From positions 65,429 through 129,428 of the forward strand of contig SUUS01000001.1 in NCBI GenBank assembly GCA_015062395.1: a DNA stretch of 64,000 nt. Reading direction: 5' to 3'. The stretch is from Alphaproteobacteria bacterium. GTDB lineage: Bacteria; Pseudomonadota; Alphaproteobacteria; CAAHEQ01; UBA3637. Made by a program: the position numbers and the translations under genes. Below are positions 10,256 through 57,529 of the stretch, piece by piece (position 1 is the stretch's first letter; every line of letters begins with the position of its first letter). The notes under the pieces were generated by a model. The model was not told the origin of the DNA. It did not search any database and saw only the letters and a program-made list of their open reading frames with translations.

Positions 10256-10317
10256 TTCTTGACCAAAAAAACTTATTCGTTTATAATTTAGAAAATCTTG
10301 TATGAAAAGGAGTGAAA

Positions 10318-12610: not shown

Positions 12611-12611
12611 T

Positions 12612-34918: not shown

Positions 34919-36637
34919 TTATTGATATTTTTTCATTTCTTCTTCAATCCATTTTTGGGTAAAAGATACAACTTGCTCTAATGGAAGCGTTCCTTTTTCA
35001 TCCGTACCACGAATTTTATATTCGACCATTCCGTTTGCCAAGGCTTTTGGTGCAACAATCAAACGTAAAGGAATTCCCATCAAATCAGCTTCTGCAAATT
35101 GAGGACCTGCACCCAAATTACGATCGTCGTATAAAACTTCAATGCCCAGATTTTCCAATTCAGAATAAAGTTTTTCTGCAGTTTCCCGAACGCCTTCTTT
35201 ATCCATTTGAAGAGCATTTATTTGAACTTGCCATGGGGAAATTGACAAAGGCCATATTGGACCATAATCATCGTGACTAGCTTCAATAACTGATGCCAAC
35301 GTTCTGCCAACACCGATACCATAACATCCCATAATCGGTGTTTGTTCATCGCCATTTTCATCGGTATAGGTCAAGTTCATTGCTTTACTGTAGCGAACAC
35401 CTAACTGGAAAATGTTTCCAACTTCAATACCTCGAACCATTTTTAAAGGAGCACCACATTTAGGGCATTTTTCCCCTTCTTGAACACAGGCGATATCTGC
35501 TATAATAGCGTTTGGAACATCTCTTGATAAATTAAAGTTGTACATATGATAATCAGTTTTATTTGCTCCACACAACAAATTTGCAGTATTGGCAACAGAA
35601 TTATCTACGACTTGGATACAATCGTGCAAACCGATACCACTTGCAAAACCAGGAACAGCCCCTATAGATTCGATTTGCTCATCATTTGCAAATTGGAATG
35701 TTTCTTTTAAAACTTTTGCTAATTTACATTCGTTTACTTCTATATCGCCACGGATAGTCACTGCAACCATTTTTCCACTATCTGTGATATAAAATACCAT
35801 TTTGGCAGTTTGTTCTGGGTGTAAATTAAGTAAAGCACAAACATCTTCAATTGTTTTTACATTTGGCGTATGAACTTCTTGCAAAGGTTTAGGCTCTTCA
35901 TTATTGTATTTGAGCTGACCAGAAGATGCAACTTCTTCGTTTGCAACATAATCGCATTTAGAACACTTTGCGATTTTATCTTCACCAGCGTCACAAATTA
36001 AATCGTATTCATGTGAAACCTTTCCCCCCATCATGCCATTATCTCCTTCAATAGCGACAACTTGAGGGATACCACAACGGGCATAAATACGCGCATAAGC
36101 ATCTGCACAACGGGCATAGTATTGATTTAAATCTTCTTGCGTTCTGTGGAAAGAATAAGCATCCTTCATTGTAAATTCACGAACACGAACCAATCCACCA
36201 CGAGAACGAGCCTCATCACGGAACTTTGTCTGAATTTGATACAGCATAAACGGATATTCTTTATATGAAGTAATCTCACTTCTAGCAATAGCAACACACG
36301 CTTCTTCATGCGTCATTGCTAACAACATTCCATGTTTATTTCTGTCTTGAAAACGCAACAATTCAGATTGAACAGAATCATATCGACCCGTTTCGTCCCA
36401 TAATTCCCTGGGCAAAACAACAGGCATTTTGATTTCTTGTCCTTCAATCGCGTCCATTTCTTGACGAACAATGTTTTCAATTTTTTGAGAAATACGAAAA
36501 GCTGGTGGCAACATCGAATATATACCGTTCGCGACGGGTCGGATATATGCACCACGTAATAAATAAATGTGGCTGATAAGTTGCGCTTCTGTCGGTTTTT
36601 CCTTATAGCGACGACCAATTAATTTGCTATTTCTCAT
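34919..36637 (-). CDS. proS: Prolyl-tRNA synthetase, bacterial type with full INS (YbaK-like) editing domain
   Basis: 572 aa. Class II motifs (FRDEARSRGGLVRVREFTMKDAYSF; GCYGIGVGR). An inserted domain of about 180 aa lies between motifs 2 and 3 (…VFYITDSGKMVAVTIRGDIEVNECKL…). Confidence 0.93.
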   Translation of the reverse strand: MRNSKLIGRRYKEKPTEAQLISHIYLLRGAYIRPVANGIYSMLPPAFRISQKIENIVRQEMDAIEGQEIKMPVVLPRELWDETGRYDSVQSELLRFQDRNKHGMLLAMTHEEACVAIARSEITSYKEYPFMLYQIQTKFRDEARSRGGLVRVREFTMKDAYSFHRTQEDLNQYYARCADAYARIYARCGIPQVVAIEGDNGMMGGKVSHEYDLICDAGEDKIAKCSKCDYVANEEVASSGQLKYNNEEPKPLQEVHTPNVKTIEDVCALLNLHPEQTAKMVFYITDSGKMVAVTIRGDIEVNECKLAKVLKETFQFANDEQIESIGAVPGFASGIGLHDCIQVVDNSVANTANLLCGANKTDYHMYNFNLSRDVPNAIIADIACVQEGEKCPKCGAPLKMVRGIEVGNIFQLGVRYSKAMNLTYTDENGDEQTPIMGCYGIGVGRTLASVIEASHDDYGPIWPLSISPWQVQINALQMDKEGVRETAEKLYSELENLGIEVLYDDRNLGAGPQFAEADLMGIPLRLIVAPKALANGMVEYKIRGTDEKGTLPLEQVVSFTQKWIEEEMKKYQ

Positions 36638-42453: not shown

Positions 42454-42530
42454 CGGAGCGTAGCTCAGTCTGGTAGAGTACTTGGTTTGGGACCAAGGTG
42501 CCGTAGGTTCAAATCCTATCGCTCCGACCA
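42454..42530 (+). tRNA. tRNA-Pro (anticodon UGG), CCA encoded
   Basis: CGGAGCGTAGCTCAGTCTGGTAGAGTACTTGGTTTGGGACCAAGGTGCCGTAGGTTCAAATCCTATCGCTCCGACCA. Cloverleaf folded by hand: acceptor CGGAGCG/CGCTCCG, anticodon stem CTTGG/CCAAG with loop TT-TGG-GA, T-arm GTAGG-TTCAAAT-CCTAT. Confidence 0.93.
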
Positions 42531-43058: not shown

Positions 43059-43178
43059 TCACCTTTTTTTCAAGCTTTTTGTGATTGCTTCAATACCCGC
43101 TTTTACAGCGCGGTCAGCATCGGCCTTGGTTAATCCTGCTGTTTTAGCAATAGCTTCAACTAATTCTGTTTTATTCAT
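43059..43178 (-). pseudogene. Truncated HU/IHF-family DNA-binding protein gene (5' fragment only)
   Basis: Reverse-strand ATG at 43178 has an AAGGAA upstream. It reads MNKTELVEAIAKTAGLTKADADRAVKAGIEAITKSLKK, the canonical HU N-terminus, then hits TGA right after an A7 run. Even with the frame corrected, only GDAV follows before all HU similarity is lost. Confidence 0.6.
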
Positions 43179-43393: not shown

Positions 43394-44908
43394 ATGACTT
43401 TAAAAAATACAAGAGCGAGCAACTATCCTGAGTGGTATCAGAATGTCATAACTGCAGCTGATATGGCAGAAGTATCTTCTTCGCCAGGATGCATGGTTAT
43501 TAAGCCTTGGGGGTATGGGATATGGGAACGTATTCAACGGGTTCTAGATGATAAGATCAAAGAAACAGGTCATGAGAATTGTTACTTTCCTCTATTTATT
43601 CCTTTAAGCTATTTTCAAAAAGAAGCAGAGCATGTTGAAGGTTTTGCTAAAGAAATGGCAATTGTTACTCATAGTCGCTTAACTATGCAAGATGGCAAAT
43701 TGACACCTGATGGAAAATTGGAAGAACCTCTTATTGTTCGTCCTACCTCTGAAACAATTATTGCGGATTCGTTCTCAAAATGGGTCAAATCATACAGAGA
43801 TTTGCCAATTATGATAAATCAATGGGCAAATGTTGTCCGTTGGGAGATGAGACCAAGAATCTTTTTACGAACAAGAGAGTTTTTATGGCAAGAAGGTCAC
43901 ACTGCACATGCTAGTTATGAGGAAGCGGAACAAGAAGCAAAAACCATGTTGAATGTGTATTCTGATGTGGCACGAGATGCTTTGGCTATGCCTGTTATAA
44001 AAGGACGCAAGCCCGAGCATGAAAAATTCCCAGGCGCTGTTGATACATATTGTATAGAAGCAATGATGCAGGATGGTAGAGCTTTACAAGCTGGTACCTC
44101 GCACTTTTTAGGCCAAAATTTTGCCAAATCAGCTGATATTAAGTTTCTAGGTAAGGATGGGAAACAACAATATGCATACACAACCTCTTGGGGTGTAACG
44201 ACACGTCTAATTGGTAGCTTAATTATGACGCACGCTGATGATGAAGGAATGGTCGTTCCTCCAAAGATTGCACCACATCAAATTGTTATCGTCCCTATCA
44301 TCAAAGATAAAGCTCAAAGAGAGGAAGTAATGTCCTACGTGATGCGCTTGTATTCTGCTTTATCTAAACAGAGCTATGATGGCGAAAAAATTCGTGTAAA
44401 AGTTGATACAAGAGACAAGGAATCTGTAGACAAAATGTGGGAGTGGACACGAAAAGGTGCCCCCATTGTATGTGAGGTTGGACCTCGTGACGTAAAAAAC
44501 AATGGTTTAATGGTCAGAACAAGAAATAAGATCAACACCCCAGAATGGAAACAAGTTGTTCAGTTTGATGATTTTGTTTCATCAGCTTCTAAGAGGTTGG
44601 AAGATTTCCATATGGATTTATATAACGCTGCGAATACTCGTTTACAACAAAATCAAAGAACAGATATTACAACGGCAGAGGAAATGCAAGCATATTTTGC
44701 GCAACAAAACTCTTGGGTAAACGGTCAAGGGCAAAAGGTAGCTTTTGTCCGTGGCAAATGGTCTGAAGATCCAGAAAGCGTTGATAAAATGAAGGAAATG
44801 AAAATTTCAATTCGCTGTATTCCTGAGGATCAATCTCAGAAGGAAGGAAATTGCCTTTTGACTAATAAAAAAGCGAAACTTGATGTTATTTATGCAAGAT
44901 CTTATTAG
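43394..44908 (+). CDS. proS: Prolyl-tRNA synthetase, archaeal/eukaryote-like type (no INS domain, ProRS-C1-type C-terminal domain)
   Basis: 504 aa. YPEWYQNVITAADMAEVSSSPGCMVIKPWGYGIWE and the following N-terminus are typical of type-II (archaeal/eukaryote-like) ProRS. Class II motifs RPTSET, FLRTREFLWQEGHTAH and TSWGVTTR. The C-terminus ends ...VIYARSY, with the conserved terminal Tyr of this subtype. Confidence 0.9.
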   Translation: MTLKNTRASNYPEWYQNVITAADMAEVSSSPGCMVIKPWGYGIWERIQRVLDDKIKETGHENCYFPLFIPLSYFQKEAEHVEGFAKEMAIVTHSRLTMQDGKLTPDGKLEEPLIVRPTSETIIADSFSKWVKSYRDLPIMINQWANVVRWEMRPRIFLRTREFLWQEGHTAHASYEEAEQEAKTMLNVYSDVARDALAMPVIKGRKPEHEKFPGAVDTYCIEAMMQDGRALQAGTSHFLGQNFAKSADIKFLGKDGKQQYAYTTSWGVTTRLIGSLIMTHADDEGMVVPPKIAPHQIVIVPIIKDKAQREEVMSYVMRLYSALSKQSYDGEKIRVKVDTRDKESVDKMWEWTRKGAPIVCEVGPRDVKNNGLMVRTRNKINTPEWKQVVQFDDFVSSASKRLEDFHMDLYNAANTRLQQNQRTDITTAEEMQAYFAQQNSWVNGQGQKVAFVRGKWSEDPESVDKMKEMKISIRCIPEDQSQKEGNCLLTNKKAKLDVIYARSY

Positions 44909-44913
44909 AAAAA

Positions 44914-45573
44914 ATGAGCAAAATTTTTCTTTATCATGTAGATAAATCAAAAATTGATGAGTCTCAGCTTTCTGTTCTGGAGTCTATTTTGTCAGCAACA
45001 GAAAACAAAAGATTTAAAAAGATAAAAATGATAGATGCGAGAAAGAATTTTATTCTTTCTCGTTTTCTGATTAATAAGGCATTAATGAATTTCAATTGTG
45101 CGCAAAGATTTCATATTGGTAGAACTATATATGGGAAACCATATTTATCTCCAAATCCTAAAAATTTAAAAATATCAATAAGTCATACGAGAGATATTAT
45201 TTGCCTTTTAATTGCAAAAAATATAGAGTTTATAGGTGTTGATATAGAGGAAAAAAACAGAAAAATAAATAAAAAAGGTATTATAAATTTTCTGTACTCT
45301 CCTGATGAAAAATTGTATCTTAAAACAAAAGATTTGTATAAAAATTTTTTTAAATATTGGACCTTTAAGGAGGCATTTACGAAAGCTCTTGGAAAAGGAC
45401 TTTTAATTCCATTTAATCAAATATCCTTTTCCAAAAAATACCAAAAGTATTATGTTACCTCTGTGCCTATTGATATAAACTCTAATACAACAGGGTTCAT
45501 AGTATGTTTAGATAAAAATGAAAGATCAGCCGATATTAACATAAATAATGTTATTATAGGAGGGATAAAATGA
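44914..45573 (+). CDS. Sfp-type 4'-phosphopantetheinyl transferase
   Basis: GKPYL, SISHT, IGVDIEE and YWTFKEAFTKALGKG (the W/KEA motif). It starts 5 nt after the ProRS2 stop. Confidence 0.85.
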   Translation: MSKIFLYHVDKSKIDESQLSVLESILSATENKRFKKIKMIDARKNFILSRFLINKALMNFNCAQRFHIGRTIYGKPYLSPNPKNLKISISHTRDIICLLIAKNIEFIGVDIEEKNRKINKKGIINFLYSPDEKLYLKTKDLYKNFFKYWTFKEAFTKALGKGLLIPFNQISFSKKYQKYYVTSVPIDINSNTTGFIVCLDKNERSADININNVIIGGIK

Positions 45574-46409
45574 AAAGAATTTGTATTGCGACAGATGAAG
45601 ATAATATCAATGATCCTGAGAATTTACTAATTAGTAAAATTCTTAATGACATGGGAGCTAAAGCAGAATTGACTATTTGGGATAAACAAGAAAGTCTTTT
45701 CAAAGATTGCGACTATGTTTTAATTCGTTCTTGTTGGAATTATCACAAATACCCAGATAAATTTATTCAATGGATAAATTCTCTCAATATTCCAACAATC
45801 AACGCTAAGAGTTTAATCCAATGGAATATTCATAAAAAATATCTTCTTGAGTTAGAAAAACACAATATTGAAATTCCAAAAACATATGTTATTCAAAAAG
45901 AAAATGTAAAAGATTTTAATTTTAATATATTTGATGAATTTGTAATAAAACCAGCAATATCAGCAAGTGGCTATTTGACATATAAATATAATAAAAATGA
46001 TAGTGAAAAGGTAAATTCTTTACTTCCATTGTATTCTTCAGATGTTTTAATACAAGAATTCATTCCGGAAGTAATACAAGAAGGTGAAATATCCTTTGTA
46101 TTTTTCAACAATAGCTTTTCACATGCTGTAAAAAAAATACCTTCACTATCTGATTTCAGAAGTCAAGCAAGATATGGAGGAACTGTTAAAAATTTTATTC
46201 CAAATCAAGCTTTAAAAAATAAGGCAGTAGAAATAGTACAAAAAATCATGGATATCACTAACGAATGCCCTTTCTATATGAGATTAGATGCGGTTTTGAG
46301 AAAAAATAATTTAGTTATAATGGAAATTGAGGCAATTGAACCCAGGCTTTTTTTATCGAATTCAAATTGTGATATCTTTAAAAAAGCTTGGCAATCTATT
46401 CTTCCTTAA
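45570..46409 (+). CDS. ATP-grasp ligase, RimK/GshB-like
   Basis: VIKPAISASG, VLIQEFIP, DFRSQARYGGT (compare the RimK EFRSN..GG motif) and LVIMEIEAIEP. ATGA overlap with the PPTase gene and a GGAGG RBS. Confidence 0.75.
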   Translation: MKRICIATDEDNINDPENLLISKILNDMGAKAELTIWDKQESLFKDCDYVLIRSCWNYHKYPDKFIQWINSLNIPTINAKSLIQWNIHKKYLLELEKHNIEIPKTYVIQKENVKDFNFNIFDEFVIKPAISASGYLTYKYNKNDSEKVNSLLPLYSSDVLIQEFIPEVIQEGEISFVFFNNSFSHAVKKIPSLSDFRSQARYGGTVKNFIPNQALKNKAVEIVQKIMDITNECPFYMRLDAVLRKNNLVIMEIEAIEPRLFLSNSNCDIFKKAWQSILP

Positions 46410-49400
46410 CTGTATCTTCTAAAAGGGATATATACAAAGAAGCCCAGTCTTTAATGGTATTTATATCAAAACGATGAACATGATACCAAAAATTAAAACG
46501 AAGATTGCTTTTCTGCATGTCGACTATCAGAAATAATCCCGCTAATTCTCTTAAGGTTGAATAGTTTAATGTATTCAACAATGGTTCTGAAATGGTTCCA
46601 AGTGTTTCTAAAACTTCTACTTTAGGCCAGACATTGTCTTTTTCTTTGTGATAATTATTCAGCATGATATAGGCATCTGTGAAATAACTTGATCGAGAGA
46701 AATTCAAAAACTTTTCGACATACTTAGGTAAAAGATTCACTGGGTAGTAAGACCTTTCATTCACAAGAGATACAATACTATTAATTTGGGTTATTTGTGT
46801 CATATTAGAAAGAGTTTCATCTAAAGAAATCGGAAGTGGGAATTGTTTAACGAATGGGCCTATTGTTTCTTTAAAATTATCCTCTGTTCGTCCATTGAAA
46901 ACAGTTCCTATTAATAAATTATGTTGTCTTGTTAATTTTACCAATAACTTCGAATAAACAAACAACAATACTGAAAAAACGGATACATGCGCTTTATGAG
47001 CAAATTTATTTAAGGATTCATATACTTTTTCTGAAGAAAAAATGGTATAGCAACTTGACGGATAACACTGTTCAAAAAATTCATCTCCGGTTTTATTTGG
47101 CAAAATTACAGGACGTGCAATACCAGCATATAACCCACCAAAGAAGGCTTCATTTTCCTTTTCTGTCTCCAGTAAAAATTTATGTTGCCAATCTACATAT
47201 TGATCATAGAGAACTGGATTTGGGAGTCTCAAATGTGATTTTTGAAGAAAAGAGGCATAAAATTTTCTTAATTCTTCAACAAATACCGTCACAGATGTTC
47301 CATCGAATGGCAAATGATGCGTAAAAAGAAGACATATAAACTGATTATTATTTAACTTTAAAATTTTTAAAATCCAAGGTGGGGTTTTTGTAATATCAGG
47401 AAAAGAAGATGTTAACGTACATGCTAAATTTTTTATATATTCAGCAACATTTTCTACACCCTTCATATTCACAAAAATACTTTCACTAGAAATGAAATCT
47501 TTTATATTACAAGTTTCATAATGATTATCAACATAACAATGTGTCAAAATTGGATGTCTTGAAATAACCTCTTTTAAGGCGTTCAAAAATGAATTCTTTT
47601 TTAGTTCGCAATGGAAAAGTATTGGTATCAATAAATATCCATATTTAATTCTTTCTAATGCCACCCACCTTTGTTCTTCATATGATAACTTGTTTTCACT
47701 ATTGTTCTTATCCAAGACAATCTCTGTTTTTTCACATAGTTTTTTATCCAATGATTTACTGGAACAATTTTTGATACAAAAGGCTGTTAAATTTCTTAAA
47801 GTTCTTTCTTTAAATACAACACTAACAGGGAATGAAATATTTAACAAATGTCTAATAGCGTTACGTAATTCTATTGCGCTTAAAGAATCAAGTCCCAAAT
47901 CAAAAAGATCATCATCTTTTTCAATATGGCAATTATGTGTATATTTGTCTAAAACTCGAGCAACTTCGGATGAGACAATACTAGGAATGTCTTGAATGCT
48001 GTATTGAGTTAATGTATCCGTGTTCTTTTCCTCAACAGGCAAATAATCTTTTGCTAACAATCTAAAGAACGGGCTATTTTCGAGTTTATATTTTCTTAAA
48101 AAGATATTCCAATTCATAGGTAATAAAATTACCTGTTCTTGTAAACTAAGTATTGATGACATTATCTCATCGAAATCGTTTTTTTTAAGATAAGAATATC
48201 CCTTTTCTTCTAATTTCTGCTGTAGATTCTTGTTTATATCAATAGTTCCTAAGTCCCCCCATGCTCCCCAATTAATACTTAATGCTGGTAATCCCAAAGA
48301 TATCCTATATTTACACACAGAATCCAAGAATGCGTTTGCTGTTGTATAATTAGATTGTCCAGGATTTCCTATTACGGATACAGCGGAAGAAAAGACTACA
48401 AAAAAATCTAACTGTGTATTTAAAGAGAGTTTATGTAAATTCCATACTCCAAGAACCTTTGCCTTTGCAATTTTCTTAAAGTCCTCCATAGTCGTATTTG
48501 TAAAGGATTTATCCTCAATACAACCAGCCGCATGCACAATTCCACCGATATTTTTTATATCAAGTTTTGAAGACAATGCAAAAAACTTGCTCTCATCGGA
48601 AATATCCATACTTATATATTCTAGGTCTAATGTGTCATCAAGCAGCTTTAAAGTTCTTATTTGTTCTATCACCTCATTCTTTTCCCGACGGCCAACTATC
48701 ACAATTCGTTTTGCACCATTTTTAATGAGCCACTTACTGGTTAAAAGTCCTAATGCACCTACCCCCCCTGTCACTAAATATTGTTTTTTAGGAACTATAG
48801 TGAGTTTCCGTTCTGATGATAAAGAAATGGGGGCTAAAGTTGCTTCAAAGACACTTTTCCCGCCTGGATCAATTTGAAAAAAACTAAACGACTTTTGCTG
48901 ACGTATACACGAAGCAATCTTTGAAATAGAATTTTCTGTCAATGCCTTTGCAAAAAAACAAGAGCATTTGATTTCTGAATTTTCAAGACAAATTGTTTTT
49001 AAAAGAGAAACTAGAGATTCATTTAAAAAGTCATTACCAACAAAAATAAACGAAATATTTTCTATTTTCCCCATTAAAAAGGCTTCTTTTAAGGAATAAA
49101 AAACGTTTTTGATCTTATTTAAATAAAGCCTTAAGATATCAGATGAGGTGTAATTCTGCACATCATCGGAAATACTGTCTATAACATATACAATACGTTC
49201 TATTTTCTTCTTAAAAGAATCAAGTTTTTCTTTTAAGAAGAATGAGTTATTTGAAATATCTGTACTTACAAGGAGATTCTTTTCTGATGAGAAGTGTGCT
49301 ATTTGACTTTTATCTCCTATAATTAACGAATTCTCTATATAAGATTTAGAAAAATTAGAAAGCGAAACTGATTCCCATTGAATTTTGTATAAATCGTTTC

Positions 49401-52400
49401 TCCAACTTGCCTTTTGTAATAAATCAACCGGCTCAAGATAATATTTTTTTAAATCAAAAGGATAAGTTGGTAGTTCAATTAATAAACAATTATCTTTCGG
49501 TAGGATATGGTCAAAATTAACGGATATTCCTTTCGAAAATAATTTTCCAAATGCTGAAAGTAATTGTTCTGTATCATCAGTAGTTTTTCTCATCATAGGT
49601 ATATATGTTGCGTTCTGCTCATCATAACATTCTGCAACCATATTAAGAAGCACAGAATTTGGACCTATTTCCAAGAAAATATCAACATCCTTATTTTTTA
49701 AATTATGGATCATATTTTCAAAATTGACAGGTTGAATCATGTGGTTACACCAATAGTCTGAAGATATTTCTCCTGTTTGAATAAAATCCCCCGTTACATT
49801 TGAAAGTAATTTTATAAAAGGATCCTTAAATGAAAATTTGGAAAGATATTTTTTATATACCGCCACAAGGGGATTAGCAACACTTGAATGGCCAAAACTG
49901 CTGTTATCTAATTTTTGTGCTTCAATCTTCTGATCATGTAAAGCTTTAAAAAGTGATAGTATTCTCTCTGTTGGACCAGATACAACCACTAAATTAGGTG
50001 TATTGATAGATGCTATAGATATCTCATTATAGTTTTCCAACAGTTTTTCGACAGTATTTTTATTAGCTCTGATTGCTAACATTTTTGCATGAATTTTTAA
50101 TGAAGTTAACAAAACAGCTCTATGATAAACTATTTGAAGTAATTCATTTAATTTTAGTATACCAGCACAGTAAGCTGCAACGTATTCTCCCAAACTATGT
50201 CCTAATACAAATTTAGGCAAAATTGCCATTTGTTTTAAAATTTCTAGAATAGATACTTCTATGGCTACAATTGCCAGTTGATTTAAAATAACATCTTGTT
50301 CTGAATATTTTTCCTGTTTCCATATTATATCGATTAGATCAAAATCCGTAAATTTCTTTATAATTTTATTACATTCCTGAATCTTTTTCTTAAAAATAGC
50401 ATTTTTCTCATACAGCCTCTTTCCCATCCCAAAATATTGAGATGTATAACCAGAAAAAATAAAGGCAAGCTGTTGTTTTTGTGAGACCTTAAAATCATCT
50501 TTTGTAACAGATGGGAGTTTTAATCGTTTTTCAGTATTTGACAGTTCGTATATCAAACGATCCATTGTATTCGCAACAAAAGAGACCCTATAATCAAAAT
50601 GATATTTCCTCTTTAAAAGTGAATAAGAGATATCCTGTAGACGTAAATCACGATGATTTTCGAAGAAAATTCTATGATTGTGTATTATTTTAACTAAATC
50701 CTCGAATTTCTTTCCAGAAAAAACAAACAAATAAAAATTATTCTTTTGTTTTGTTTGGTTGTTTTTTTTGTGTGAATAACTTTCTAAAATGACATTAGCG
50801 TTAGTACCACCAAGACCAAAGGAATTCACTAAGCAATAATGTTTCTTTGATTTCCAAGGGATCGTTTTATTATTTACATAAAAGGGAGAATCATCCAACT
50901 CCAATAAGGGGTTATTTTTTTTAAAATGAAGTGTAGCAGGTATTTGTTTATGCTGAATACATAAAATTGCTTTTATTATCCCTGCCATGCCAGAAGCCCA
51001 ACCGAGATGACCTATATTAGTTTTTACGCTCCCAATAACGCAATCCCTTTTCCTATTATTACCGAAAACATTTTTTAATGCTTGGATTTCAACTGCATCT
51101 CCAACGACAGTTCCAGTTCCATGTGTTTCAATAAAAGAAATTTTATCTGGCAGTATGTTTGCATCTTTTAAAGCTTGCTGTAATGATCGTGTTTGTCCAT
51201 CAATTGTTGGTGCTAGAAAATTAGATTTCCCATTATTTCCATCATTACTAACACCACTTCCTGAAATAATGGCTAAAATATTATCTTTATCTTTTATGGC
51301 TTTTGATAGTGGTTTTAATAAAACTACTCCTAATCCTTGGGCCATCATCATACCTTCTGATCTTTCATCGAAAGTACGTGTATGGCCATCTGGTGACCAA
51401 GGCATGTCTTTTTGGAAAGTATATTTATGTTTTGATGGGGACATAATGTTTACAGCACCAACTAGTGCCATTTCACATTCTCCATTCAAAAGAGCTTGTT
51501 TTGCCAAGTGAATTGCAACCAACGATGAAGAACATGCAGATTGTACATTAATACTTGGTCCTTCTAACCCCAATTTAAAGGAAACTTTTGTTGGTAAGTA
51601 ATCCTTATCCCCGCCCATCATAACTTGCAAATCCGAAAAACGTTCGAAGAAATACCTATTAGAACGATAATCTAAGTTTGGGTTAAGGTTATTAACAAGA
51701 TAGCTACTAAATCCTTGGGAAGCAAAGACTCCTATCTTTTTAGTCGTATTATTGTTAAGATATCCTGTTTTTTCTAGTAGTTCCCAAGATAATTCCAAAA
51801 ACTTTCGTTGTTGTGGATCCATCATTTCTGCTTCAGTCTTTGAATATCCAAAGAATTCAGCATCAAACAAATTTGCATCATCAATTGTAGATGAACAAAA
51901 TACATCATGCTCAAAGGGATCCAGCATTGACAAATCCTGTGATGGGCCAAAAGATTCGATACTTTCTTTACCAGTTGAAAGAAAATTCCAAAATTCGTCA
52001 GGAGTATGGCACTTAGGAAAATTGCATGCCATTCCTATTACAGCGATTTTTTCTTTTACAGGTTTTCCAAAATCTTGAATAACTGCTTCTTTCCCCTGTA
52101 TTATATTTCCTTTTAAGAGATCAGATACAGCATTAAATGTACTATTTTTTAGTAGCATAGCAACTGGTATTTTTTGCTTGAATGTTTCGAAAATTTTCGT
52201 GTATAGCTGAAGCAAGAGTAATGAGGTTCCACCTAGCTCAAAGAATGTCTTATTTTTGTCAAAGTCGGTTATGTGCAAAAGATCTCGCCAGATTTCTTCC
52301 AACTTAGTCAATTCTGAATGGGTTGTTGTTTCTTTTTTTTCTATATACGTTTGAATTAATACTTTTCTATCCAGTTTCCCTGACGGGGTTCTCGGTAATT

Positions 52401-53811
52401 TGTCAATTACGACAAAATCTTTAGGAGTCATATAATTAGGCACCAGAGTACCAATGGATTGCTTTATATCCAAAATCTCAGTTTTTTCGTTTTTCAAGAC
52501 AATAAAAGCGACAAGGAAAGTGGGCCGATTTTCAGCCATTATCGGACAAACAGCACATTCAAGAACATTTTTATCTTTTGATAATAGGTACTCTATTTCT
52601 GCAAGTTCTATTCTATACCCACTTATTTTTACTTGGTCATCTTTTCGCCCAACGAATTCAAGTTGCTTTTTCTTGTTTAGCTTGACAATATCGCCTGTTG
52701 CATATAGAAGATTTTTTGTGTTTTGAGGATCTGGGATGAAAGATTTATTTGTATCCTTTGGATTATTTACATACCCTTTAGCAATAAACGGAGCACAGAT
52801 AAACAATTCACCCTCCGTAGTAGCTGTAAGTTTTTCATTTAGAATTTTTAACTGTATATTGGATATAGGCTTTCCTATGGGAGGGAGTTTCCCCCACTGA
52901 TTAACATTCTTTGGTAATGTAAACGAAGTGACAACATGGGTCTCACTCGGACCATACTGATTGATTAGACGGCAATGCTTTAGAATTTTAAAAAAAGAAC
53001 GAATTACTGGCGTTATAATCAACTGTTCACCGGCTGTGATTACTTCTTTAAGAGAGGTAGGAAAGGTTTTATTAAGATCTGCGATTTGCGCTATGTAATT
53101 TAACATTACTGCGGGGAGAAAAATCCGTTCAATCTTGAACTTGTCAATTAAGTACAGCAGTTTTTCAGGATCTTTTCTTTCATTTTCTTCAATCAGTACT
53201 AATGAAGCACCCGTACATAAAGTAGAAAAAATTTCTTGAAAAGAAACATCGAAGCTAATTGGGGCAAATTGTAATGTTCTTTTTATCGCAGATTCTTTAA
53301 TTTGCCATGTAATAAGATTTTCAAGAACTGATGTTGGCATAACAACACCCTTTGGAGCTCCCGTAGAACCAGAAGTAAATATAATATAGGCCAATTTACC
53401 AAAACCGTTATTGTTTACGGTTTTATTTCCCCTTGAATTTTTAATTATCTTTTCAAAAAAAACAAACTTTTTATTTCTTTTGTCAATGGTTACATCATCT
53501 GTGATAATTAAATTTGTACCGGATTTTTCCTGCATAAAATTCAAACGCTCGACAGGATAACTCTTATCAAGTGGAACATAAGGGTTTCCAGACTTTAGAA
53601 TTCCTAAAATAGAGATAATTAACTCTATTGATCTGTCAAATAGTACTCCTACTGGTTTCTTATAATTTAATGATTTTATATAACCTGCAACTAAATCTGA
53701 TTTGAAATCTAATTCTCCATAAGTTAGCTCTATACCATCCTTAATAATGGCTACCTTATCGGGAGTCTCGACACAAATCTTCTTAAAATTGTTATATAAA
53801 CTACTTTGCAT
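46396..53811 (-). CDS. Hybrid NRPS-PKS megasynthase, A-T-KS-AT-KR-ACP-C (2471 aa)
   Basis: All core motifs are found in order; see the domain sub-features. There is no TE or reductase release domain. The protein ends in a condensation domain with an intact HHxxxDG. Confidence 0.95.
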   Translation of the reverse strand: MQSSLYNNFKKICVETPDKVAIIKDGIELTYGELDFKSDLVAGYIKSLNYKKPVGVLFDRSIELIISILGILKSGNPYVPLDKSYPVERLNFMQEKSGTNLIITDDVTIDKRNKKFVFFEKIIKNSRGNKTVNNNGFGKLAYIIFTSGSTGAPKGVVMPTSVLENLITWQIKESAIKRTLQFAPISFDVSFQEIFSTLCTGASLVLIEENERKDPEKLLYLIDKFKIERIFLPAVMLNYIAQIADLNKTFPTSLKEVITAGEQLIITPVIRSFFKILKHCRLINQYGPSETHVVTSFTLPKNVNQWGKLPPIGKPISNIQLKILNEKLTATTEGELFICAPFIAKGYVNNPKDTNKSFIPDPQNTKNLLYATGDIVKLNKKKQLEFVGRKDDQVKISGYRIELAEIEYLLSKDKNVLECAVCPIMAENRPTFLVAFIVLKNEKTEILDIKQSIGTLVPNYMTPKDFVVIDKLPRTPSGKLDRKVLIQTYIEKKETTTHSELTKLEEIWRDLLHITDFDKNKTFFELGGTSLLLLQLYTKIFETFKQKIPVAMLLKNSTFNAVSDLLKGNIIQGKEAVIQDFGKPVKEKIAVIGMACNFPKCHTPDEFWNFLSTGKESIESFGPSQDLSMLDPFEHDVFCSSTIDDANLFDAEFFGYSKTEAEMMDPQQRKFLELSWELLEKTGYLNNNTTKKIGVFASQGFSSYLVNNLNPNLDYRSNRYFFERFSDLQVMMGGDKDYLPTKVSFKLGLEGPSINVQSACSSSLVAIHLAKQALLNGECEMALVGAVNIMSPSKHKYTFQKDMPWSPDGHTRTFDERSEGMMMAQGLGVVLLKPLSKAIKDKDNILAIISGSGVSNDGNNGKSNFLAPTIDGQTRSLQQALKDANILPDKISFIETHGTGTVVGDAVEIQALKNVFGNNRKRDCVIGSVKTNIGHLGWASGMAGIIKAILCIQHKQIPATLHFKKNNPLLELDDSPFYVNNKTIPWKSKKHYCLVNSFGLGGTNANVILESYSHKKNNQTKQKNNFYLFVFSGKKFEDLVKIIHNHRIFFENHRDLRLQDISYSLLKRKYHFDYRVSFVANTMDRLIYELSNTEKRLKLPSVTKDDFKVSQKQQLAFIFSGYTSQYFGMGKRLYEKNAIFKKKIQECNKIIKKFTDFDLIDIIWKQEKYSEQDVILNQLAIVAIEVSILEILKQMAILPKFVLGHSLGEYVAAYCAGILKLNELLQIVYHRAVLLTSLKIHAKMLAIRANKNTVEKLLENYNEISIASINTPNLVVVSGPTERILSLFKALHDQKIEAQKLDNSSFGHSSVANPLVAVYKKYLSKFSFKDPFIKLLSNVTGDFIQTGEISSDYWCNHMIQPVNFENMIHNLKNKDVDIFLEIGPNSVLLNMVAECYDEQNATYIPMMRKTTDDTEQLLSAFGKLFSKGISVNFDHILPKDNCLLIELPTYPFDLKKYYLEPVDLLQKASWRNDLYKIQWESVSLSNFSKSYIENSLIIGDKSQIAHFSSEKNLLVSTDISNNSFFLKEKLDSFKKKIERIVYVIDSISDDVQNYTSSDILRLYLNKIKNVFYSLKEAFLMGKIENISFIFVGNDFLNESLVSLLKTICLENSEIKCSCFFAKALTENSISKIASCIRQQKSFSFFQIDPGGKSVFEATLAPISLSSERKLTIVPKKQYLVTGGVGALGLLTSKWLIKNGAKRIVIVGRREKNEVIEQIRTLKLLDDTLDLEYISMDISDESKFFALSSKLDIKNIGGIVHAAGCIEDKSFTNTTMEDFKKIAKAKVLGVWNLHKLSLNTQLDFFVVFSSAVSVIGNPGQSNYTTANAFLDSVCKYRISLGLPALSINWGAWGDLGTIDINKNLQQKLEEKGYSYLKKNDFDEIMSSILSLQEQVILLPMNWNIFLRKYKLENSPFFRLLAKDYLPVEEKNTDTLTQYSIQDIPSIVSSEVARVLDKYTHNCHIEKDDDLFDLGLDSLSAIELRNAIRHLLNISFPVSVVFKERTLRNLTAFCIKNCSSKSLDKKLCEKTEIVLDKNNSENKLSYEEQRWVALERIKYGYLLIPILFHCELKKNSFLNALKEVISRHPILTHCYVDNHYETCNIKDFISSESIFVNMKGVENVAEYIKNLACTLTSSFPDITKTPPWILKILKLNNNQFICLLFTHHLPFDGTSVTVFVEELRKFYASFLQKSHLRLPNPVLYDQYVDWQHKFLLETEKENEAFFGGLYAGIARPVILPNKTGDEFFEQCYPSSCYTIFSSEKVYESLNKFAHKAHVSVFSVLLFVYSKLLVKLTRQHNLLIGTVFNGRTEDNFKETIGPFVKQFPLPISLDETLSNMTQITQINSIVSLVNERSYYPVNLLPKYVEKFLNFSRSSYFTDAYIMLNNYHKEKDNVWPKVEVLETLGTISEPLLNTLNYSTLRELAGLFLIVDMQKSNLRFNFWYHVHRFDINTIKDWASLYISLLEDTVKEE
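46399..47694 (-). other. C-terminal condensation domain (aa ~2040-2471)
   Basis: LLFTHHLPFDGTSVTVF (HHxxxDG, His2165/His2166/Asp2170). About 430 aa, the typical C-domain length. Confidence 0.8.
47767..47979 (-). other. ACP domain (aa ~1945-2015)
   Basis: LFDLGLDSLSAIELRNAI (Ser1976). Confidence 0.85.
48232..48786 (-). other. Ketoreductase catalytic subdomain (aa ~1676-1860)
   Basis: YLVTGGVGALGLLTSKWL, HAAGCIEDK (LDD-like, hinting at B-type), SSAVSVIGNPGQSNYTTANAFLD (Tyr1822). The preceding aa ~1450-1675 look like the structural psi-KR half, with no DH HxxxGxxxxP motif. Confidence 0.85.
49552..50475 (-). other. Acyltransferase domain (aa ~1113-1420), non-canonical specificity motifs
   Basis: FIFSGYTSQYFGMG appears in place of the usual GQGSQ. 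The active site is GHSLGEY (Ser1206). SFGHS sits where HAFH or YASH normally does. Confidence 0.85.
50782..52050 (-). other. Ketosynthase domain (aa ~588-1010)
   Basis: IAVIGMACNFP, DPQQRKFLE, VQSACSSSLVAIHLA (Cys760), ETHGTGT (His897), KTNIGHLGWASG (His935). Confidence 0.92.
52102..52314 (-). other. Thiolation (PCP) domain (aa ~500-570)
   Basis: FFELGGTSLLLLQL, with Ser530 as the phosphopantetheine site. Confidence 0.8.
52357..53811 (-). other. Adenylation domain (aa ~1-485), proline-like specificity code
   Basis: A3 YIIFTSGSTGAPKGV, A4 FDVSFQEIF, A5 NQYGPSETHV, A6 GELFICAPFIAKGY, A7 YATGDIV, A8 GRKDDQVKISGYRIELAEIE, A10 PRTPSGKLDRK. Boundaries are approximate. Confidence 0.9.
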
Positions 53812-54043
53812 GATTCTGAATGAAACTCACAACATCCCCTATCGCTTTCATTTTGGCTATTTCTTCATTTGGAAAAGAAATATTAAATTTTTCTTCCAAC
53901 CGAAAAAATAAATCCATTTTATCTAAGGAATCCACTTCCATTTCTTTAAAAGACATATCACTGGTCAATATCTTATCATGTAAAGCGAACTTTACCTCTT
54001 TTAACGTTTCTTGAACTATTTGAAAAATATCGTTATCACTCAT
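53801..54043 (-). CDS. Discrete acyl carrier protein
   Basis: 80 aa. MEVDSLDKMDLFFRLEE (DSL serine motif). AGGAGG RBS. Overlaps the megasynthase start by 11 nt. Confidence 0.8.
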   Translation of the reverse strand: MSDNDIFQIVQETLKEVKFALHDKILTSDMSFKEMEVDSLDKMDLFFRLEEKFNISFPNEEIAKMKAIGDVVSFIQNHAK

Positions 54044-55004: not shown

Positions 55005-56067
55005 ATATTGGGAAATATGTTGGAATTTCAGAATTTTGATAATCTAGTATTAGTTGTGGAATATCTTCCCAACAATAGGTATACACGTCATCTATTATAG
55101 GCATCCAATTGTGCGAAATTGCATAGTTCATCGCATCTAAAGCTTCCTGACGATTTGCATAATGAGTATTTACATGTATGTGTCGATTAATGCATTCAAC
55201 CGTTCTTGAAATAGGAAGTAAGGATCCTGTCTTCCAACCACATGATGAAATTACGGCGTTCCTTCCCAATCCTTTTAGTGCTATTTTTGTGAATGTTCCT
55301 CCTAAATTATCTATAAATATTGATGCTCCCTCATTATGTGTTTCTCTTGAAATATACGACAAAAAATCTTTTTCAAAATCCTTAAATGTGGTTCGATTTA
55401 TGGGGATTATCCCTGAAGAACGAGCATATCTCTCTCTGTACTCATTTGATACCGTCATATAAACACTAAACCCCACTTTTTTTGCGAGAAGAAGTTCAGC
55501 ATATGAAACTCCACCACCATAAGCAAAAACGGACAATCCCTTTGGCTTTCGTTTCGAAAAGGTTTGTATTTTCCAACAGCCATACGCTTGCCGCCAATTT
55601 GAATAAGCAGAAATGAAGCGACCAGAGAATGCGGCCCATTGTTTCAAGGAAAATTGTGAATTTGGGGGTATCTTAATAACCTGTTCCTCTTTCAATTTGA
55701 TTTTTTTTGCTAAATTTCCCATAATTCCTTTTGCATCATAACCCGCTATCTTTATCGGATAACCTTGGGCGTCAGAGATACCATTCCCAAAATAAATGGC
55801 AAAATCACCAATTTCCACTGAGGAAACCTTCTTTCCTCTATTTTGAATATAAAGAACACCAGTATTACCCAAAATTATTTCTTCTTCTGCTCTATCTTCA
55901 TTAATGTTTGTGGGAACTTTTTGTACAGCATGTAAGATGTTTGCTTCAAAACAACCATAAACAGGTAAAGCCAATACCTCATCATCCTCAATATCCGGAA
56001 AATGAATTATTTTTCGTTCTAAAATAGATGAATCCTTCTGTAAAACATACGCCTCTGTTTCAATCAT
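54967..56067 (-). CDS. MDR-superfamily NAD(P)-dependent oxidoreductase (enoyl-reductase or CCR-like candidate)
   Basis: 366 aa. Rossmann segment VFAYGGGVSYAELLLAKKVGFSVYMTVSNEYRERYARSSGIIPINR fits the MDR pattern GxGGVGxxAxQLAKxxGAxVxxT. GroES-like N-terminal half. Confidence 0.65.
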   Translation of the reverse strand: MIETEAYVLQKDSSILERKIIHFPDIEDDEVLALPVYGCFEANILHAVQKVPTNINEDRAEEEIILGNTGVLYIQNRGKKVSSVEIGDFAIYFGNGISDAQGYPIKIAGYDAKGIMGNLAKKIKLKEEQVIKIPPNSQFSLKQWAAFSGRFISAYSNWRQAYGCWKIQTFSKRKPKGLSVFAYGGGVSYAELLLAKKVGFSVYMTVSNEYRERYARSSGIIPINRTTFKDFEKDFLSYISRETHNEGASIFIDNLGGTFTKIALKGLGRNAVISSCGWKTGSLLPISRTVECINRHIHVNTHYANRQEALDAMNYAISHNWMPIIDDVYTYCWEDIPQLILDYQNSEIPTYFPIYEINRRDELAKL

Positions 56068-56840
56068 TTTTTGCTCCGAAGTAAATACGTTTTACTCAAA
56101 GTACTTGGCTGTATTTTGGATATTATACTAAAACCAATTTGTTTAATCTCATCCTCTGATACATCTTCGTATAAAAGAGTTGCAGCTTTTTGTGGTAAAC
56201 GTAACAGAATATTAACATTAGTTTTGGCGGTATCTTTAATTTTTAATAATGTTTTTTTCTTATTAGATAGTCCATTTGCTAAAAGTACGATATTTTCATC
56301 CTTATACGAGAAATCAAAGGATCTCTTTTTTATAAACGTGAAATCTTTTGAAATATCTTTGGAGCACGTCTGTTTGATATACGCTTCAGAGGCTTTAAGA
56401 GCTTGTGTATCATAATCCAAACAAACTGGTATAATCCTCTGATAATTTTGTTTAAGTTCAATTAATGTTTCAGGGTGGTATCCACTACCAGCCATAAGAC
56501 AACGTTTCTGGCTGGATAGATCCTTAATAAGATTAAATTCGCAAAGAACTCCAGCATATCCTTCTTTTTCAAGAATGGATATGCTATTTACCTTTTCACC
56601 ATTCAAAAAATCCTTAACCTTGTTCCTTTCTAATTCTTTTATATACTTATTCCATTTTAAAGAAATTTCCTTTTTATCATCAGAAGATAAAGAAGTAAGC
56701 AAGTCAGAGATTTCATTTTCAGATAAACCAATTAAAATCTTCCAAAAATCCTGAAAGACTAATAAGTCAGGTTCAGTGTAATAAGCCTTTAAAGGTATAG
56801 ATAAAACCTTTTGCGTAATTTGTAATATGGACACTCTCAT
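56064..56840 (-). CDS. Nicotianamine-synthase-like (CntL-like) SAM-dependent transferase candidate
   Basis: 258 aa. RCLMAGSGYHPETLIEL versus NAS VAFVGSGPLPLTSIVLA. VCLDYDTQALKASEAYI versus NAS xNxDxDxxANxxA. VLLANGLSNKKKTLLKI...ILLRLPQKAATLLYEDVSEDEIKQIGFSIISKIQPS...TYLLRSKK versus NAS VFLAALVGM..EEK.KVI...LVVRSAHGARAFLYPVVD..DI..GFEVLSVFHP...NSVIIARK. The comparison is from memory of the family consensus. Confidence 0.5.
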   Translation of the reverse strand: MRVSILQITQKVLSIPLKAYYTEPDLLVFQDFWKILIGLSENEISDLLTSLSSDDKKEISLKWNKYIKELERNKVKDFLNGEKVNSISILEKEGYAGVLCEFNLIKDLSSQKRCLMAGSGYHPETLIELKQNYQRIIPVCLDYDTQALKASEAYIKQTCSKDISKDFTFIKKRSFDFSYKDENIVLLANGLSNKKKTLLKIKDTAKTNVNILLRLPQKAATLLYEDVSEDEIKQIGFSIISKIQPSTLSKTYLLRSKK

Positions 56841-56912: not shown

Positions 56913-57353
56913 TTACTCACTGACAGCAGTTGAAGAAAAAATAGCTTCTGCAACAATTCTATTGTTGATTCTAATTGTTCCTTCAAACTTATAAGCATTA
57001 CCGATAGAGTGTTTTTTTATAGCCTCAATGTAAAGAGTATCTCCAGGGCGAGCTTGCCCTCTAAATTTTGCACTTTCAATAGTCATAAAAAGAAAAATTA
57101 AATTATGACATTTTCTTTCTTTAAGGTCAAAATACATCAGTATATTCGACAATTGGGACATTGCTTCAACAAAGAAAGTTCCAGGAAAAATGGGGTTATT
57201 TGGGAAATGTCCTTTTAAGAAGAATTCATCTGATGAAATTTCTTTTATGCCCGAAATTTTATCACTGGTATAGTCCAACACAGCGTCAACCATCAACATA
57301 GGATAACGATGCGGAAGAATTGTTTTTATTTTTTCTAAATCTAAACTTGGCAT
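56913..57353 (-). CDS. fabZ: FabZ-like 3-hydroxyacyl-ACP dehydratase
   Basis: LPHRYPMLMVDAVLDY and GHFPNNPIFPGTFFVEAMSQ (catalytic His and Glu context). It is not in the usual lpxD-fabZ-lpxA context. Confidence 0.85.
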   Translation of the reverse strand: MPSLDLEKIKTILPHRYPMLMVDAVLDYTSDKISGIKEISSDEFFLKGHFPNNPIFPGTFFVEAMSQLSNILMYFDLKERKCHNLIFLFMTIESAKFRGQARPGDTLYIEAIKKHSIGNAYKFEGTIRINNRIVAEAIFSSTAVSE

Positions 57354-57386: not shown

Positions 57387-57450
57387 TGTGATAAGAACAA
57401 CTTTTTAGACAGGGACAAAAGAATGTGTCTAAAAAGTTGTTCTTATCACA
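57387..57450. repeat. Perfect 25-bp inverted repeat with a 14-nt spacer
   Basis: TGTGATAAGAACAACTTTTTAGACA (57387-57411) and its exact reverse complement TGTCTAAAAAGTTGTTCTTATCACA (57426-57450). It lies 2 nt from the 3' end of tRNA-Pro(CGG) and 33 nt from the fabZ-like ATG. Confidence 0.9.
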
Positions 57451-57452: not shown

Positions 57453-57529
57453 TGGTCGGAGTGGCGGGATTTGAACCCACGACCCCTACGTCCCGAACGT
57501 AGTGCTCTACCAAACTGAGCTACACTCCG
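57453..57529 (-). tRNA. tRNA-Pro (anticodon CGG), CCA encoded
   Basis: Reverse complement is CGGAGTGTAGCTCAGTTTGGTAGAGCACTACGTTCGGGACGTAGGGGTCGTGGGTTCAAATCCCGCCACTCCGACCA. Acceptor CGGAGTG/CACTCCG, anticodon stem CTACG/CGTAG with loop TT-CGG-GA. Confidence 0.93.

Follow-up and report, generated by a model that had tools for sequence, protein, structure and literature searches.

A hybrid synthase within a convergent gene cluster

The 64,000-nucleotide stretch of DNA analysed here (the window) belongs to an uncultured metagenome-assembled genome (MAG) labelled Alphaproteobacteria at NCBI, and the element under study is an adenylation (A) domain at positions 52357-53811. This segment encodes aa 1-485 of a 2471-aa hybrid nonribosomal peptide synthetase-polyketide synthase (NRPS-PKS), whose open reading frame (ORF) spans 46396-53811 on the minus strand. 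The original prediction located the domain correctly, with the minus strand as the coding strand: the plus-strand frame of 52357-53811 is rich in stop codons. The A domain itself (52342..53811, minus strand; aa 1-490) matches Pfam AMP-binding (11-479; 1.8e-57) and AMP-binding_C, and scores 325.9 bits against TIGR01733 at a cut-off of 317.4. Judged from its sequence, the segment encodes a bona fide amino acid adenylation domain of the modular proline type.

According to Pfam and NCBIfam, the domain order of the synthase is A-T-KS-AT-KR-ACP-C, where T is a peptidyl carrier, KS a ketosynthase, AT an acyltransferase, KR a ketoreductase, ACP an acyl carrier protein and C a condensation domain. The domains downstream of A all retain intact catalytic or carrier motifs. 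All of these domains lie on the minus strand: the T domain at 52102..52323 (aa 497-570; Pfam PP-binding in two stretches), with a GGTSL motif and the attachment residue Ser530 at 52222-52224; the KS at 50620..52053 (aa 587-1064), with Cys760, HGTGT and NIGH; the AT at 49525..50463 (aa 1117-1429), with GHSLG and Ser1206; the KR at 48256..48780 (aa 1678-1852), with its catalytic Tyr in SNYTTAN; the ACP domain at 47752..47994 (aa ~1940-2020; domain match about 1962-2011), with GLDSL and Ser1976; and the C-terminal C domain at 46405..47616 (aa 2066-2469), with the motif HHLPFDG. In the AT, the specificity motif (aa ~1295-1300) is FGHS, in place of the malonyl motif HAFH or the methylmalonyl motif YASH. 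The synthase ORF has no room for upstream extension, and the gene upstream of it, which overlaps its start codon, encodes an 80-aa ACP; therefore, no C domain precedes the A domain. Because the A domain is N-terminal and lacks a preceding C domain, the term loading domain, used in the original prediction, is a fair one.

The synthase belongs to a cluster of about 14 kb that consists of two convergent units. The minus-strand operon has the order FabZ, 258-aa protein, medium-chain dehydrogenase/reductase (MDR), KS-III, ACP and synthase, with overlaps from the 258-aa gene on. Its first gene encodes a FabZ-type dehydratase (56913..57353, minus strand), and is followed by a gene for a 258-aa enzyme that is predicted to depend on S-adenosylmethionine (SAM) and resembles nicotianamine synthase (NAS) and CntL (56064..56840, minus strand); this gene is conserved throughout the six-locus family described below. 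The MDR-type oxidoreductase (54967-56067), the KS-III/FabH-like protein (54036-55004) and the free-standing ACP (53801-54043) are likewise on the minus strand, and each gene overlaps its neighbours. The plus-strand unit begins with a type-I (archaeal/eukaryote-like) prolyl-tRNA synthetase (ProRS) at 43394..44908 (504 aa; TIGR00408, 490 bits at a cut-off of 437), for which the best solved relative is T. thermophilus ProRS (1H4Q). An Sfp-type 4'-phosphopantetheinyl transferase (PPTase; 44914..45573, plus strand, 219 aa), with homologues in the related clusters, lies 6 bp downstream, and is overlapped by 4 bp by the gene for a DcsG-like ATP-grasp ligase (45570..46409, plus strand, 279 aa), which is peculiar to the window version. 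A second, bacterial-type ProRS with an editing insertion (34919..36637, minus strand, 572 aa; NF006625, 675 bits against 558) lies ~7 kb from the cluster. The G+C content is ~32%, and the composition of the cluster equals that of its flanks.

Specificity code and the proline-type pocket

The ten-residue specificity code of the A domain had been derived by hand as DVQFIAQVVK, from motifs that were all found in the domain: FDVSFQEIF (aa 187), IERIFLPAV (aa 227), EVITAGEQL (aa 256), INQYGPSETHVVTS (aa 283) and PSGKLDRK (aa 476). With GrsA position numbers and minus-strand codon coordinates in brackets, the code residues are D188 (235; 53248-53250), V189 (236; 53245-53247), Q192 (239; 53236-53238), F231 (278; 53119-53121), I258 (299; 53038-53040), A260 (301; 53032-53034), Q285 (322; 52957-52959), V293 (330; 52933-52935), V294 (331; 52930-52932) and K479 (517; 52375-52377). 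D188 and K479 are the equivalents of Asp235 and Lys517, which bind the alpha-amino and carboxylate groups. The same code was obtained by three alignment routes: pairwise alignment to GrsA; phmmer alignments to GrsB1 and TycB1, which have no gaps at any code position; and hmmalign to a profile of 121 A domains, in which the GrsA control gave DAWTIAAICK. The GrsA reference is 100% identical to PDB 1AMU chain A over residues 185-526, with D at 235. The hand-derived code is thus correct, and the profile-based extraction that the original prediction had named as a possible refutation yielded the same string. Extraction with mafft --add --keeplength was dropped, since the GrsA control came out as DAWTIAAIVQ.

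Position 278, previously regarded as the least certain, is confirmed as Phe (F231) by the three routes. L232 was considered for this position by analogy with the classical GrsB1 and TycB1 codes, and was rejected because every alignment places T278 on F231, and because the published table also gives GrsB/TycB as DVQSIAHVVK. By strict GrsA alignment, GrsB1 and TycB1 (8p5o_A and 9bfd_B against aa 178-338 of the window protein) have Ser at 278 (VLSFP and ILSLP, respectively). The F or L of classical proline codes is the residue directly after this Ser278, and comparisons of position 278 across sources can therefore be off by one. The earlier count of 8/10 matches to DVQLIAHVVK is arithmetically right.

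The pocket region (aa 175-345) is most similar, among solved structures, to the proline domains GrsB1 (8p5o; 112 bits) and TycB1 (9bfd_B; 111 bits); the next match scores 67 bits, the stand-alone proline ligase PltF (7thn) 52 bits and PheA 50 bits. LgrA initially appeared as the closest structure over the whole A-T region (442 bits), but this score is the sum of two A domains, and per domain TycB1 is best. The consensus of modular proline and 4-methylproline domains is VQ(Y/F)IAHVV (PMC3874040). Among 34 Pro-type signatures tabulated in Table S11 of PMC12283262, DVQFIAHVVK is the commonest (15 subunits), and Val236 together with Gln239 marks 25 Pro signatures, representing 59 domains. The window A domain has both of these residues (V189 and Q192), and F231, I258, A260, V293 and V294 fit the Pro pattern (aromatic or Leu at 278, Ile or Val at 299, Ala301, Val330, Val331); it departs from the modular consensus at His322, where it has Gln285. 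Its code matches DVQFIAHVVK at 9/10 positions and the signature Pro(16) of the same table at 10/10. Pro(16), DVQFIAQVVK, is that of LeuE (leupyrrin) and of the proline module in an NRPS from Chitinophaga eiseniae whose product is His-Ile-Val-Pro-Phe (PMC12283262). The original prediction of a proline-type modular domain is thus borne out both by the structural comparison and by the exactly catalogued code; its description of the code as near-canonical has the type right but is an understatement, as the exact string is already a tabulated Pro signature. Code strings, even canonical ones, are invisible to literature text searches, as tables print the letters separately, and this one was located in Table S11. 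Taken alone, the code is a routine annotation.

Comparison with individual proline domains shows where the window domain conforms and where it departs. The fold, the core motifs and the pocket residues Val236, Gln239, Ile299, Ala301, Val330 and Val331 are common to GrsB1, TycB1, LeuE, the Chitinophaga eiseniae module (SAMN04488128_1011792) and the window A domain, and the last three are the same throughout the code. In contrast, the majority of modular Pro domains have His322 where the window domain has Gln, and GrsB1 and TycB1 have Ser278 where it has Phe. Furthermore, Pro domains of the GrsB1/TycB1 type sit in internal C-A-T modules, whereas the window domain is an N-terminal starter that would feed a KS. 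The stand-alone type-II enzymes of pyrrole and anatoxin pathways (PltF, AnaC and CcbC) likewise load proline as a starter for polyketide-type extension, but their code is L(L/F)YLALVC and they have no fused T domain, so that the window domain differs from them in both respects.

The Gln at position 322 is a common natural variant in Pro-like pockets. The 120 closest database homologues of the A domain (38-46% identity) all have DVQ-type codes, with Gln322 in 68 and His322 in 51, and the code identical to that of the window is the commonest single code among them (35/120). The Gln and His types are partly clustered and interconvert often, as 25/118 nearest-neighbour pairs cross types. Gln322 is also present in 8/34 Pro-type signatures (PMC12283262). 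In that table, Pro is assigned to DidC and DidI (DVQFAAQVVK), LeuE and the Chitinophaga NRPS (DVQFIAQVVK), Var6 and VarI (DVQFLAQVVK), PppB (DVQHIAQVVK) and PxaA (DVQYISQVIK), while CmxB (DVQFVAQVVK) and VioC (DIQYYAQVVK) are given as Pro/pipecolate (Pip) and AzeB (DMQLVSQQVK) as Pro/azetidine-2-carboxylate (AZE, AZC in the table). VioB (DVQCLSEVTK; AZC/Pro) has Glu at 322, and the companion Lys/Pip table lists TubB, which takes N-methyl-pipecolate, as DIQYIAQVVK (PMC12283262 supplement). Similarly, the terminal module of telomycin synthesis (DVQFVSQVMK) and its S. formicae homologue (DVQFVAQVVK) are both assigned Pro (PMC9113097).

In characterised cases, Gln322 accompanies a relaxed choice of ring size. 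The Pro-like domains of Table S11 with a dual ring-size assignment all have Gln or Glu322, and none has His322 (PMC12283262). Additionally, PxaA, a Gln322 Pro domain, takes AZE when an AZE synthase is supplied (PMC11794875). AzeB, VioB, VioC, CmxB, TubB and PxaA have thus lost His322, to Gln or Glu, in an otherwise Pro-like pocket, as in the window; the code of CmxB is one position off the window code, whereas AzeB and VioB have only 5/10 positions in common with it. Because Gln322 is common and accompanies this relaxed choice, Pro calls for Gln322 domains are better read as 'Pro, AZE or Pip'. For the window domain, the code indicates the proline family, within which L-proline is the most likely substrate, as Pro is the only one with which this exact code has been seen.

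The original prediction had taken the exchange of His322 for Gln as a possible sign of pipecolate or of a substituted proline (hydroxy-, methyl- or dehydro-proline). The presence of Gln322 in TubB, VioC and CmxB speaks for pipecolate (PMC12283262), and 4-methylproline domains have the same consensus as proline domains (PMC3874040). However, TubB and VioC have Ile236, whereas the window domain has the Pro-typical Val236, and no lysine cyclodeaminase, proline hydroxylase, Δ1-pyrroline-5-carboxylate (P5C) reductase or NosE/NosF-type pair is present in the cluster or its ~8-kb flanks. A route to 4-methylproline was considered, in which the MDR protein and the 258-aa protein would form a NosE/NosF-like pair, and was rejected because the 258-aa protein is NAS/CntL-like and not a P5C reductase. 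Pipecolate or a substituted proline as the substrate is thus very improbable. If Gln322 is to be taken as a sign of a proline analogue, AZE is the one best suggested by the context; it was absent from the analogues listed in the original prediction.

A cluster family linked to prolyl-tRNA synthetase

The genomic context was checked for seven stand-alone A-T proteins among the closest homologues of the A domain, and a scan for the 258-aa family added one locus. Five other loci combine a type-I ProRS, a PPTase, an NAS-like enzyme, an A-T protein with the code DVQFIAQVVK and a KS…ACP-C synthase: L017 (P0028); L018 (P0014); L019 (P0008; GCA_043814645.1), which the 258-aa family scan found again as L023; L024, from a Ca. 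Moraniibacteriota MAG (JAVEXR01), found by that scan; and L025 (P0027), from a MAG of candidate division WS2 (GCA_018725485.1), in which the cluster occupies 968-14512 (13.5 kb). These loci span at least three lineages besides that of the window (Ca. Moraniibacteriota, WS2 and an unclassified MAG). In contrast, the two loci with His322 A-T proteins (L021 and L022) are in other NRPS/PKS contexts, with no ProRS and no NAS-like gene. Long fused orthologues are seemingly invisible to the homologue search, in which nothing larger than 892 aa was listed and the query's own protein was not returned. Scans of genome and metagenome contigs for orthologues of the fused 2471-aa protein gave only a 38-aa fragment from the same species.

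The original prediction tied the chemistry of the synthase to the neighbouring ProRS gene, and this tie holds, since it recurs in the five other loci and the ProRS co-diverges with the cluster. For instance, L018 and L024 are 96% identical in ProRS, 93% in the 258-aa family and 94% in A-T, and the corresponding values are 80%, 58% and 68% for L017 and L025; 73%, 52% and 54% for L017 and L018; 55%, 43% and 49% for L019 and L017; and 49%, 33% and 42% for the window and L017. The three identity matrices have the same rank order over the six loci, and it is this congruence that indicates co-divergence. Judged by these sequence comparisons, the ProRS is a genuine and conserved component of the cluster family.

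Overall, it is probable (roughly 0.7) that the window synthase starts from L-proline or a close ring analogue, and that it belongs to a conserved, ProRS-linked cluster family. Several points weigh against this reading. The code cannot tell proline from AZE or pipecolate, so that ring size is unreadable from it; the function ascribed to the terminal C domain and the nature of the extender are conjectural; and every biosynthetic step is predicted from sequence. One Gln322 A-T locus (L020) lies in another NRPS context without a ProRS, although only 1.2 kb upstream of it is visible. Three observations weaken the reading of the cluster ProRS as self-protection, which is taken up below. Relatives of the window type-I ProRS at 89, 81, 74 and 70% identity occur in unrelated contexts without the cluster, and the MAG clade seems to keep both ProRS types, with parallel relatives that are 63-92% identical in MAGs labelled Alphaproteobacteria. 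Finally, among 79 columns with at least 85% conservation in 54 diverse type-I ProRSs, there is none at which the cluster ProRSs have an unusual substitution in common. A special kinship among the cluster ProRSs relative to a diverse background was considered and rejected, as each is about as close to generic representatives.

The ProRS-I relatives outside the cluster and the retention of both ProRS types in the clade are also what would be expected if the type-I ProRS were an ordinary gene of the clade beside which the cluster had landed, with the ProRS and tRNA-Pro neighbourhood being coincidental; the equal base composition of cluster and flanks fits such a coincidence as well. On the other hand, only 6 bp separate the ProRS gene from that of the PPTase, and the latter overlaps the ATP-grasp gene; the arrangement recurs in five loci whose ProRSs are only 48-55% identical to those of the window and L019; and ProRS identity follows that of A-T and the NAS-like enzyme. 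Additionally, a truncated HU (Bac_DNA_binding) gene of 39 aa (43059-43178, minus strand), located between a tRNA-Pro(UGG) gene and the ProRS-I gene at the left edge of the cluster and kept in all contigs of the same species, marks the junction of a rearrangement or insertion, with ProRS-I lying on the same side of it as the cluster. Coincidence is therefore unlikely as an explanation for the neighbourhood as a whole; it is unlikely for the ProRS but likely true for the tRNA genes, which are ordinary and are absent from the related loci.

Two tRNA-Pro genes bracket the cluster, ~0.9 kb and 0.1 kb from its ends and with their 3' ends inward: tRNA-Pro(UGG) at 42454..42530 on the plus strand and tRNA-Pro(CGG) at 57453..57529 on the minus strand. 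Both are of the ordinary bacterial type, with C1:G72 and A73 (the bacterial identity set) and an encoded CCA. They are 81% alike and hence are not integration duplicates, and no att-like repeats are present. For the same lack of repeats, and because there is no integrase and no shift in composition, an integrative island at a tRNA gene was rejected. A eukaryote/archaeal-type tRNA-Pro dedicated to the type-I ProRS was also considered, and was rejected since both tRNAs have C1:G72 and A73. Double flanking by chance seems unlikely, and yet nothing was found that ties the genes functionally to the synthase. The related cluster loci contain no tRNA-Pro; their tRNAs are for Ala, His and Asn. The earlier proposal of a tie between the chemistry of the synthase and the tRNA-Pro genes is thus not supported, and these genes probably flank the cluster without being part of it. 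Just downstream of tRNA-Pro(CGG) and upstream of the FabZ gene lies a perfect 25-nt inverted repeat whose arms enclose a 14-nt loop (57387-57450); its simplest reading is a terminator, by which the tRNA would be insulated from the operon of the cluster.

The related loci differ from the window in the organisation of the synthase and in the accessory genes. Their A-T protein is stand-alone and their synthase is KS-(AT)-cMT-KR-ACP-C, where cMT is a carbon methyltransferase, whereas in the window A-T is fused to a synthase without cMT. The order in 4/5 loci is malonyl-CoA synthetase, ProRS-I, M15/VanX-like peptidase, PPTase, 258-aa homologue, A-T and synthase, the exception being L019, in which the malonyl-CoA synthetase is absent; in place of the peptidase and the malonyl-CoA synthetase, the window has the ATP-grasp ligase and the KS-III, ACP, MDR and FabZ genes. 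The malonyl-CoA synthetase is the adenylation gene that heads the cluster (L018 4649-6169, with 772 bits to NF005702; L024 4544-6064; L025 1183-2688; L017 46-885, cut), and the type of cluster found in WS2 and in bacteria of the candidate phyla radiation (CPR) thus appears to bring its own extender supply. Synthases of this type (L017 6622-12735, L019 11901-18953, L024 11728-17841) have a KR in which Tyr is replaced by His (SNHASAN), a C domain with QHLEFDG and a cMT, in contrast to the KR Tyr, HHLPFDG and lack of cMT in the window. Because the two versions differ in these three features, their predicted products should differ in oxidation state and methylation. In L021 (3887-9820), from a high-GC organism, a KS-III, a small ACP-like protein, a FabA-like dehydratase and a short-chain dehydrogenase/reductase precede the His322 A-T; this accessory set resembles the KS-III, ACP, FabZ and MDR set of the window, although L021 has neither a ProRS nor an NAS-like gene.

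The conserved SAM enzyme, the predicted product and a possible immunity gene

The 258-aa protein alone has no match in Pfam or NCBIfam. However, a four-member profile of its family matches CntL (7c7m) nearly end to end at E=4e-10 and archaeal NAS at E=4e-4, and Pfam NAS matches two members of the family. The family has the motif MxGCGPxPETL, and its homologues are encoded at 3931-4776 in L017, 9163-10008 in L018, 9144-9986 in L019, 9073-9900 in L024 and 5729-6571 in L025. CntL is the staphylopine enzyme, a SAM:D-histidine aminobutanoyltransferase. The profile search returned no AzeJ or VioH structure, and the AzeJ motifs FY, PFNxxGN and RxxYYxxC (PMC11794875) are absent, by eye, from a four-sequence alignment of the family. 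The 258-aa protein is thus a predicted NAS/CntL-family enzyme that would draw on the aminobutyrate moiety of SAM, perhaps to N-aminocarboxypropylate an amine of the product or, more speculatively, to form an azetidine ring as plant NAS does and thereby supply AZE.

If the latter were the case, AZE made from SAM by this enzyme could be the true substrate loaded by the Gln322 A domain, and the cluster ProRS could be a copy that discriminates against AZE and so prevents its entry into the proteins of the producer. The trio of NAS-like enzyme, Gln322 Pro-type A-T and ProRS is present in all six loci, plant NAS chemistry makes an azetidine ring from SAM, and ProRS misincorporates AZE (PMC11794875). 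Moreover, both known AZE-accepting A domains lack His322 (AzeB and VioB; PMC12283262), and AzeJ-type loci, including ones in CPR bacteria, have been reported together with aminoacyl-tRNA synthetase (aaRS), ATP-grasp and stand-alone A genes (PMC11794875); an ATP-grasp gene is also present in the window cluster. Several observations argue in the other direction. The AZE pathways known so far rely on a synthase of the AzeJ/VioH type; the only SAM enzyme of the window cluster gave no match to AzeJ or VioH in the profile search and, by eye, lacks the AzeJ motifs. No NAS-family enzyme is known to release AZE in free form. The solved bacterial and archaeal members matched by the profile, CntL and ThermoNicotianamine synthase, are described as catalysing simpler aminobutanoyl transfers (PMC10248798). 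The exact window code is assigned to Pro in two characterised systems, and the pocket, although it shares the loss of His322 with AzeB and VioB, matches each at only the 5/10 positions noted above. Lastly, no active-site change common to the cluster ProRSs was seen. Loading of AZE, with a discriminating ProRS, is therefore an unlikely alternative to loading of L-proline, albeit one more probable than pipecolate or a substituted proline. If the NAS-like enzyme does make AZE, it would represent a second, unrelated enzymatic route to this compound.

With L-proline as the most likely building block, the domain order suggests the following pathway. The A domain would adenylate L-proline, or a close ring-size analogue, and load it onto Ser530 of the T domain as a starter, which the KS would condense with one C2 or C3 extender delivered by the AT onto the ACP. 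Given the FGHS motif of the AT, the extender may not be plain malonate, and the KS-III, ACP, MDR and FabZ proteins could supply an unusual unit. The KR would then reduce the beta-keto group to give a 3-hydroxy-3-(pyrrolidin-2-yl)propanoyl thioester, whereas in CPR/WS2-type loci, with His for Tyr in the KR and a cMT, a 2-methyl-3-oxo product is predicted. The terminal C domain could then set the product free by forming an amide, either with an amine or, within the molecule, on the ring nitrogen; its motif is HHxxxDG in the window and QHxxxDG in the other loci, and the catalytic His is kept. An amino acid-started, one-module PKS extension has a precedent in the dolaproine unit of dolastatin 10, in which a Pro-type A-T followed by KS-AT-(cMT)-KR-ACP leads to a beta-oxygenated gamma-amino acid with a pyrrolidine ring. 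Dolaproine, however, is one unit of dolastatin 10, whereas the one-module line of the window is the whole assembly, ends in C and is accompanied by a ProRS and an NAS-like enzyme. It is plausible that a gamma-amino-beta-oxo or beta-hydroxy acyl amide on a proline ring mimics prolyl-adenylate or a ligand of the proline site of ProRS.

If the product is such a mimic, then the cluster ProRS would be an immunity gene. ProRS-I is embedded in a biosynthetic block in the window and in L017, L018, L019, L024 and L025, and the window genome has a second, housekeeping-type ProRS (34919-36637). Most likely, the cluster ProRS would keep proline charging of the producer safe from the product or from a toxic proline analogue that the pathway makes. 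Self-resistance by an aaRS has precedents in mupirocin (IleRS), borrelidin and obafluorin (ThrRS) and albomycin (SerRS), and a review adds AcmD (AlaRS) and SbzA (IleRS), from the clusters for ascamycin and SB-203208, respectively. In aaRS self-resistance clusters, a full-length canonical aaRS with specificity for a building block of the product is in the operon, and the same is the case in the window; in contrast to the known clusters, no resistance-type substitutions were detected at the conserved columns of the cluster ProRSs.

Although the A domain belongs to a well-known kind, the cluster family is uncharacterised. In the open-access literature, neither a description of this family nor a ProRS-bearing biosynthetic cluster or a ProRS as a cluster-borne resistance gene was found, and the survey of AZE synthases that includes aaRS-linked loci concerns an enzyme family unrelated to the NAS-like protein (PMC11794875). 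The significance of the A domain is thus derived from the cluster that it anchors, in which a proline-family building block, a SAM enzyme and a ProRS all point at proline charging. A tentative proposal, which is less likely than not, is that the loci represent a new biosynthetic family, scattered over the Alphaproteobacteria MAG clade, Ca. Moraniibacteriota (CPR), WS2 and an unclassified MAG, that makes a proline- or azetidine-derived product acting on ProRS and carries its own ProRS as immunity. The product could be a small beta-keto or beta-hydroxy acyl compound, with ProRS hit by mimicry or through a toxic proline analogue. If this were true, ProRS would for the first time be linked, as a target, to a bacterial gene cluster. 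As a drug target, ProRS has been validated, for instance through halofuginone and its antimalarial successors, and if the cluster ProRS is an immunity gene, then the family offers a lead to a natural ProRS inhibitor whose target is predicted in advance. Reports of biosynthetic clusters are rare for lineages such as CPR bacteria, and at ~14 kb the window cluster is small enough for direct heterologous expression.

One of the ProRS-I relatives outside the cluster family has a context of its own. In another MAG (L007/L008, 10001-21515), a ProRS-I that is 81% identical to that of the window lies directly after a transposase. The genes after it encode three radical-SAM enzymes, a ScmC-family protein, a nucleotidyltransferase, a protein of the nucleoside phosphorylase family (PNP_UDP_1) and an AlaRS-like protein, and the locus may represent a further small-molecule system with a linked aaRS.

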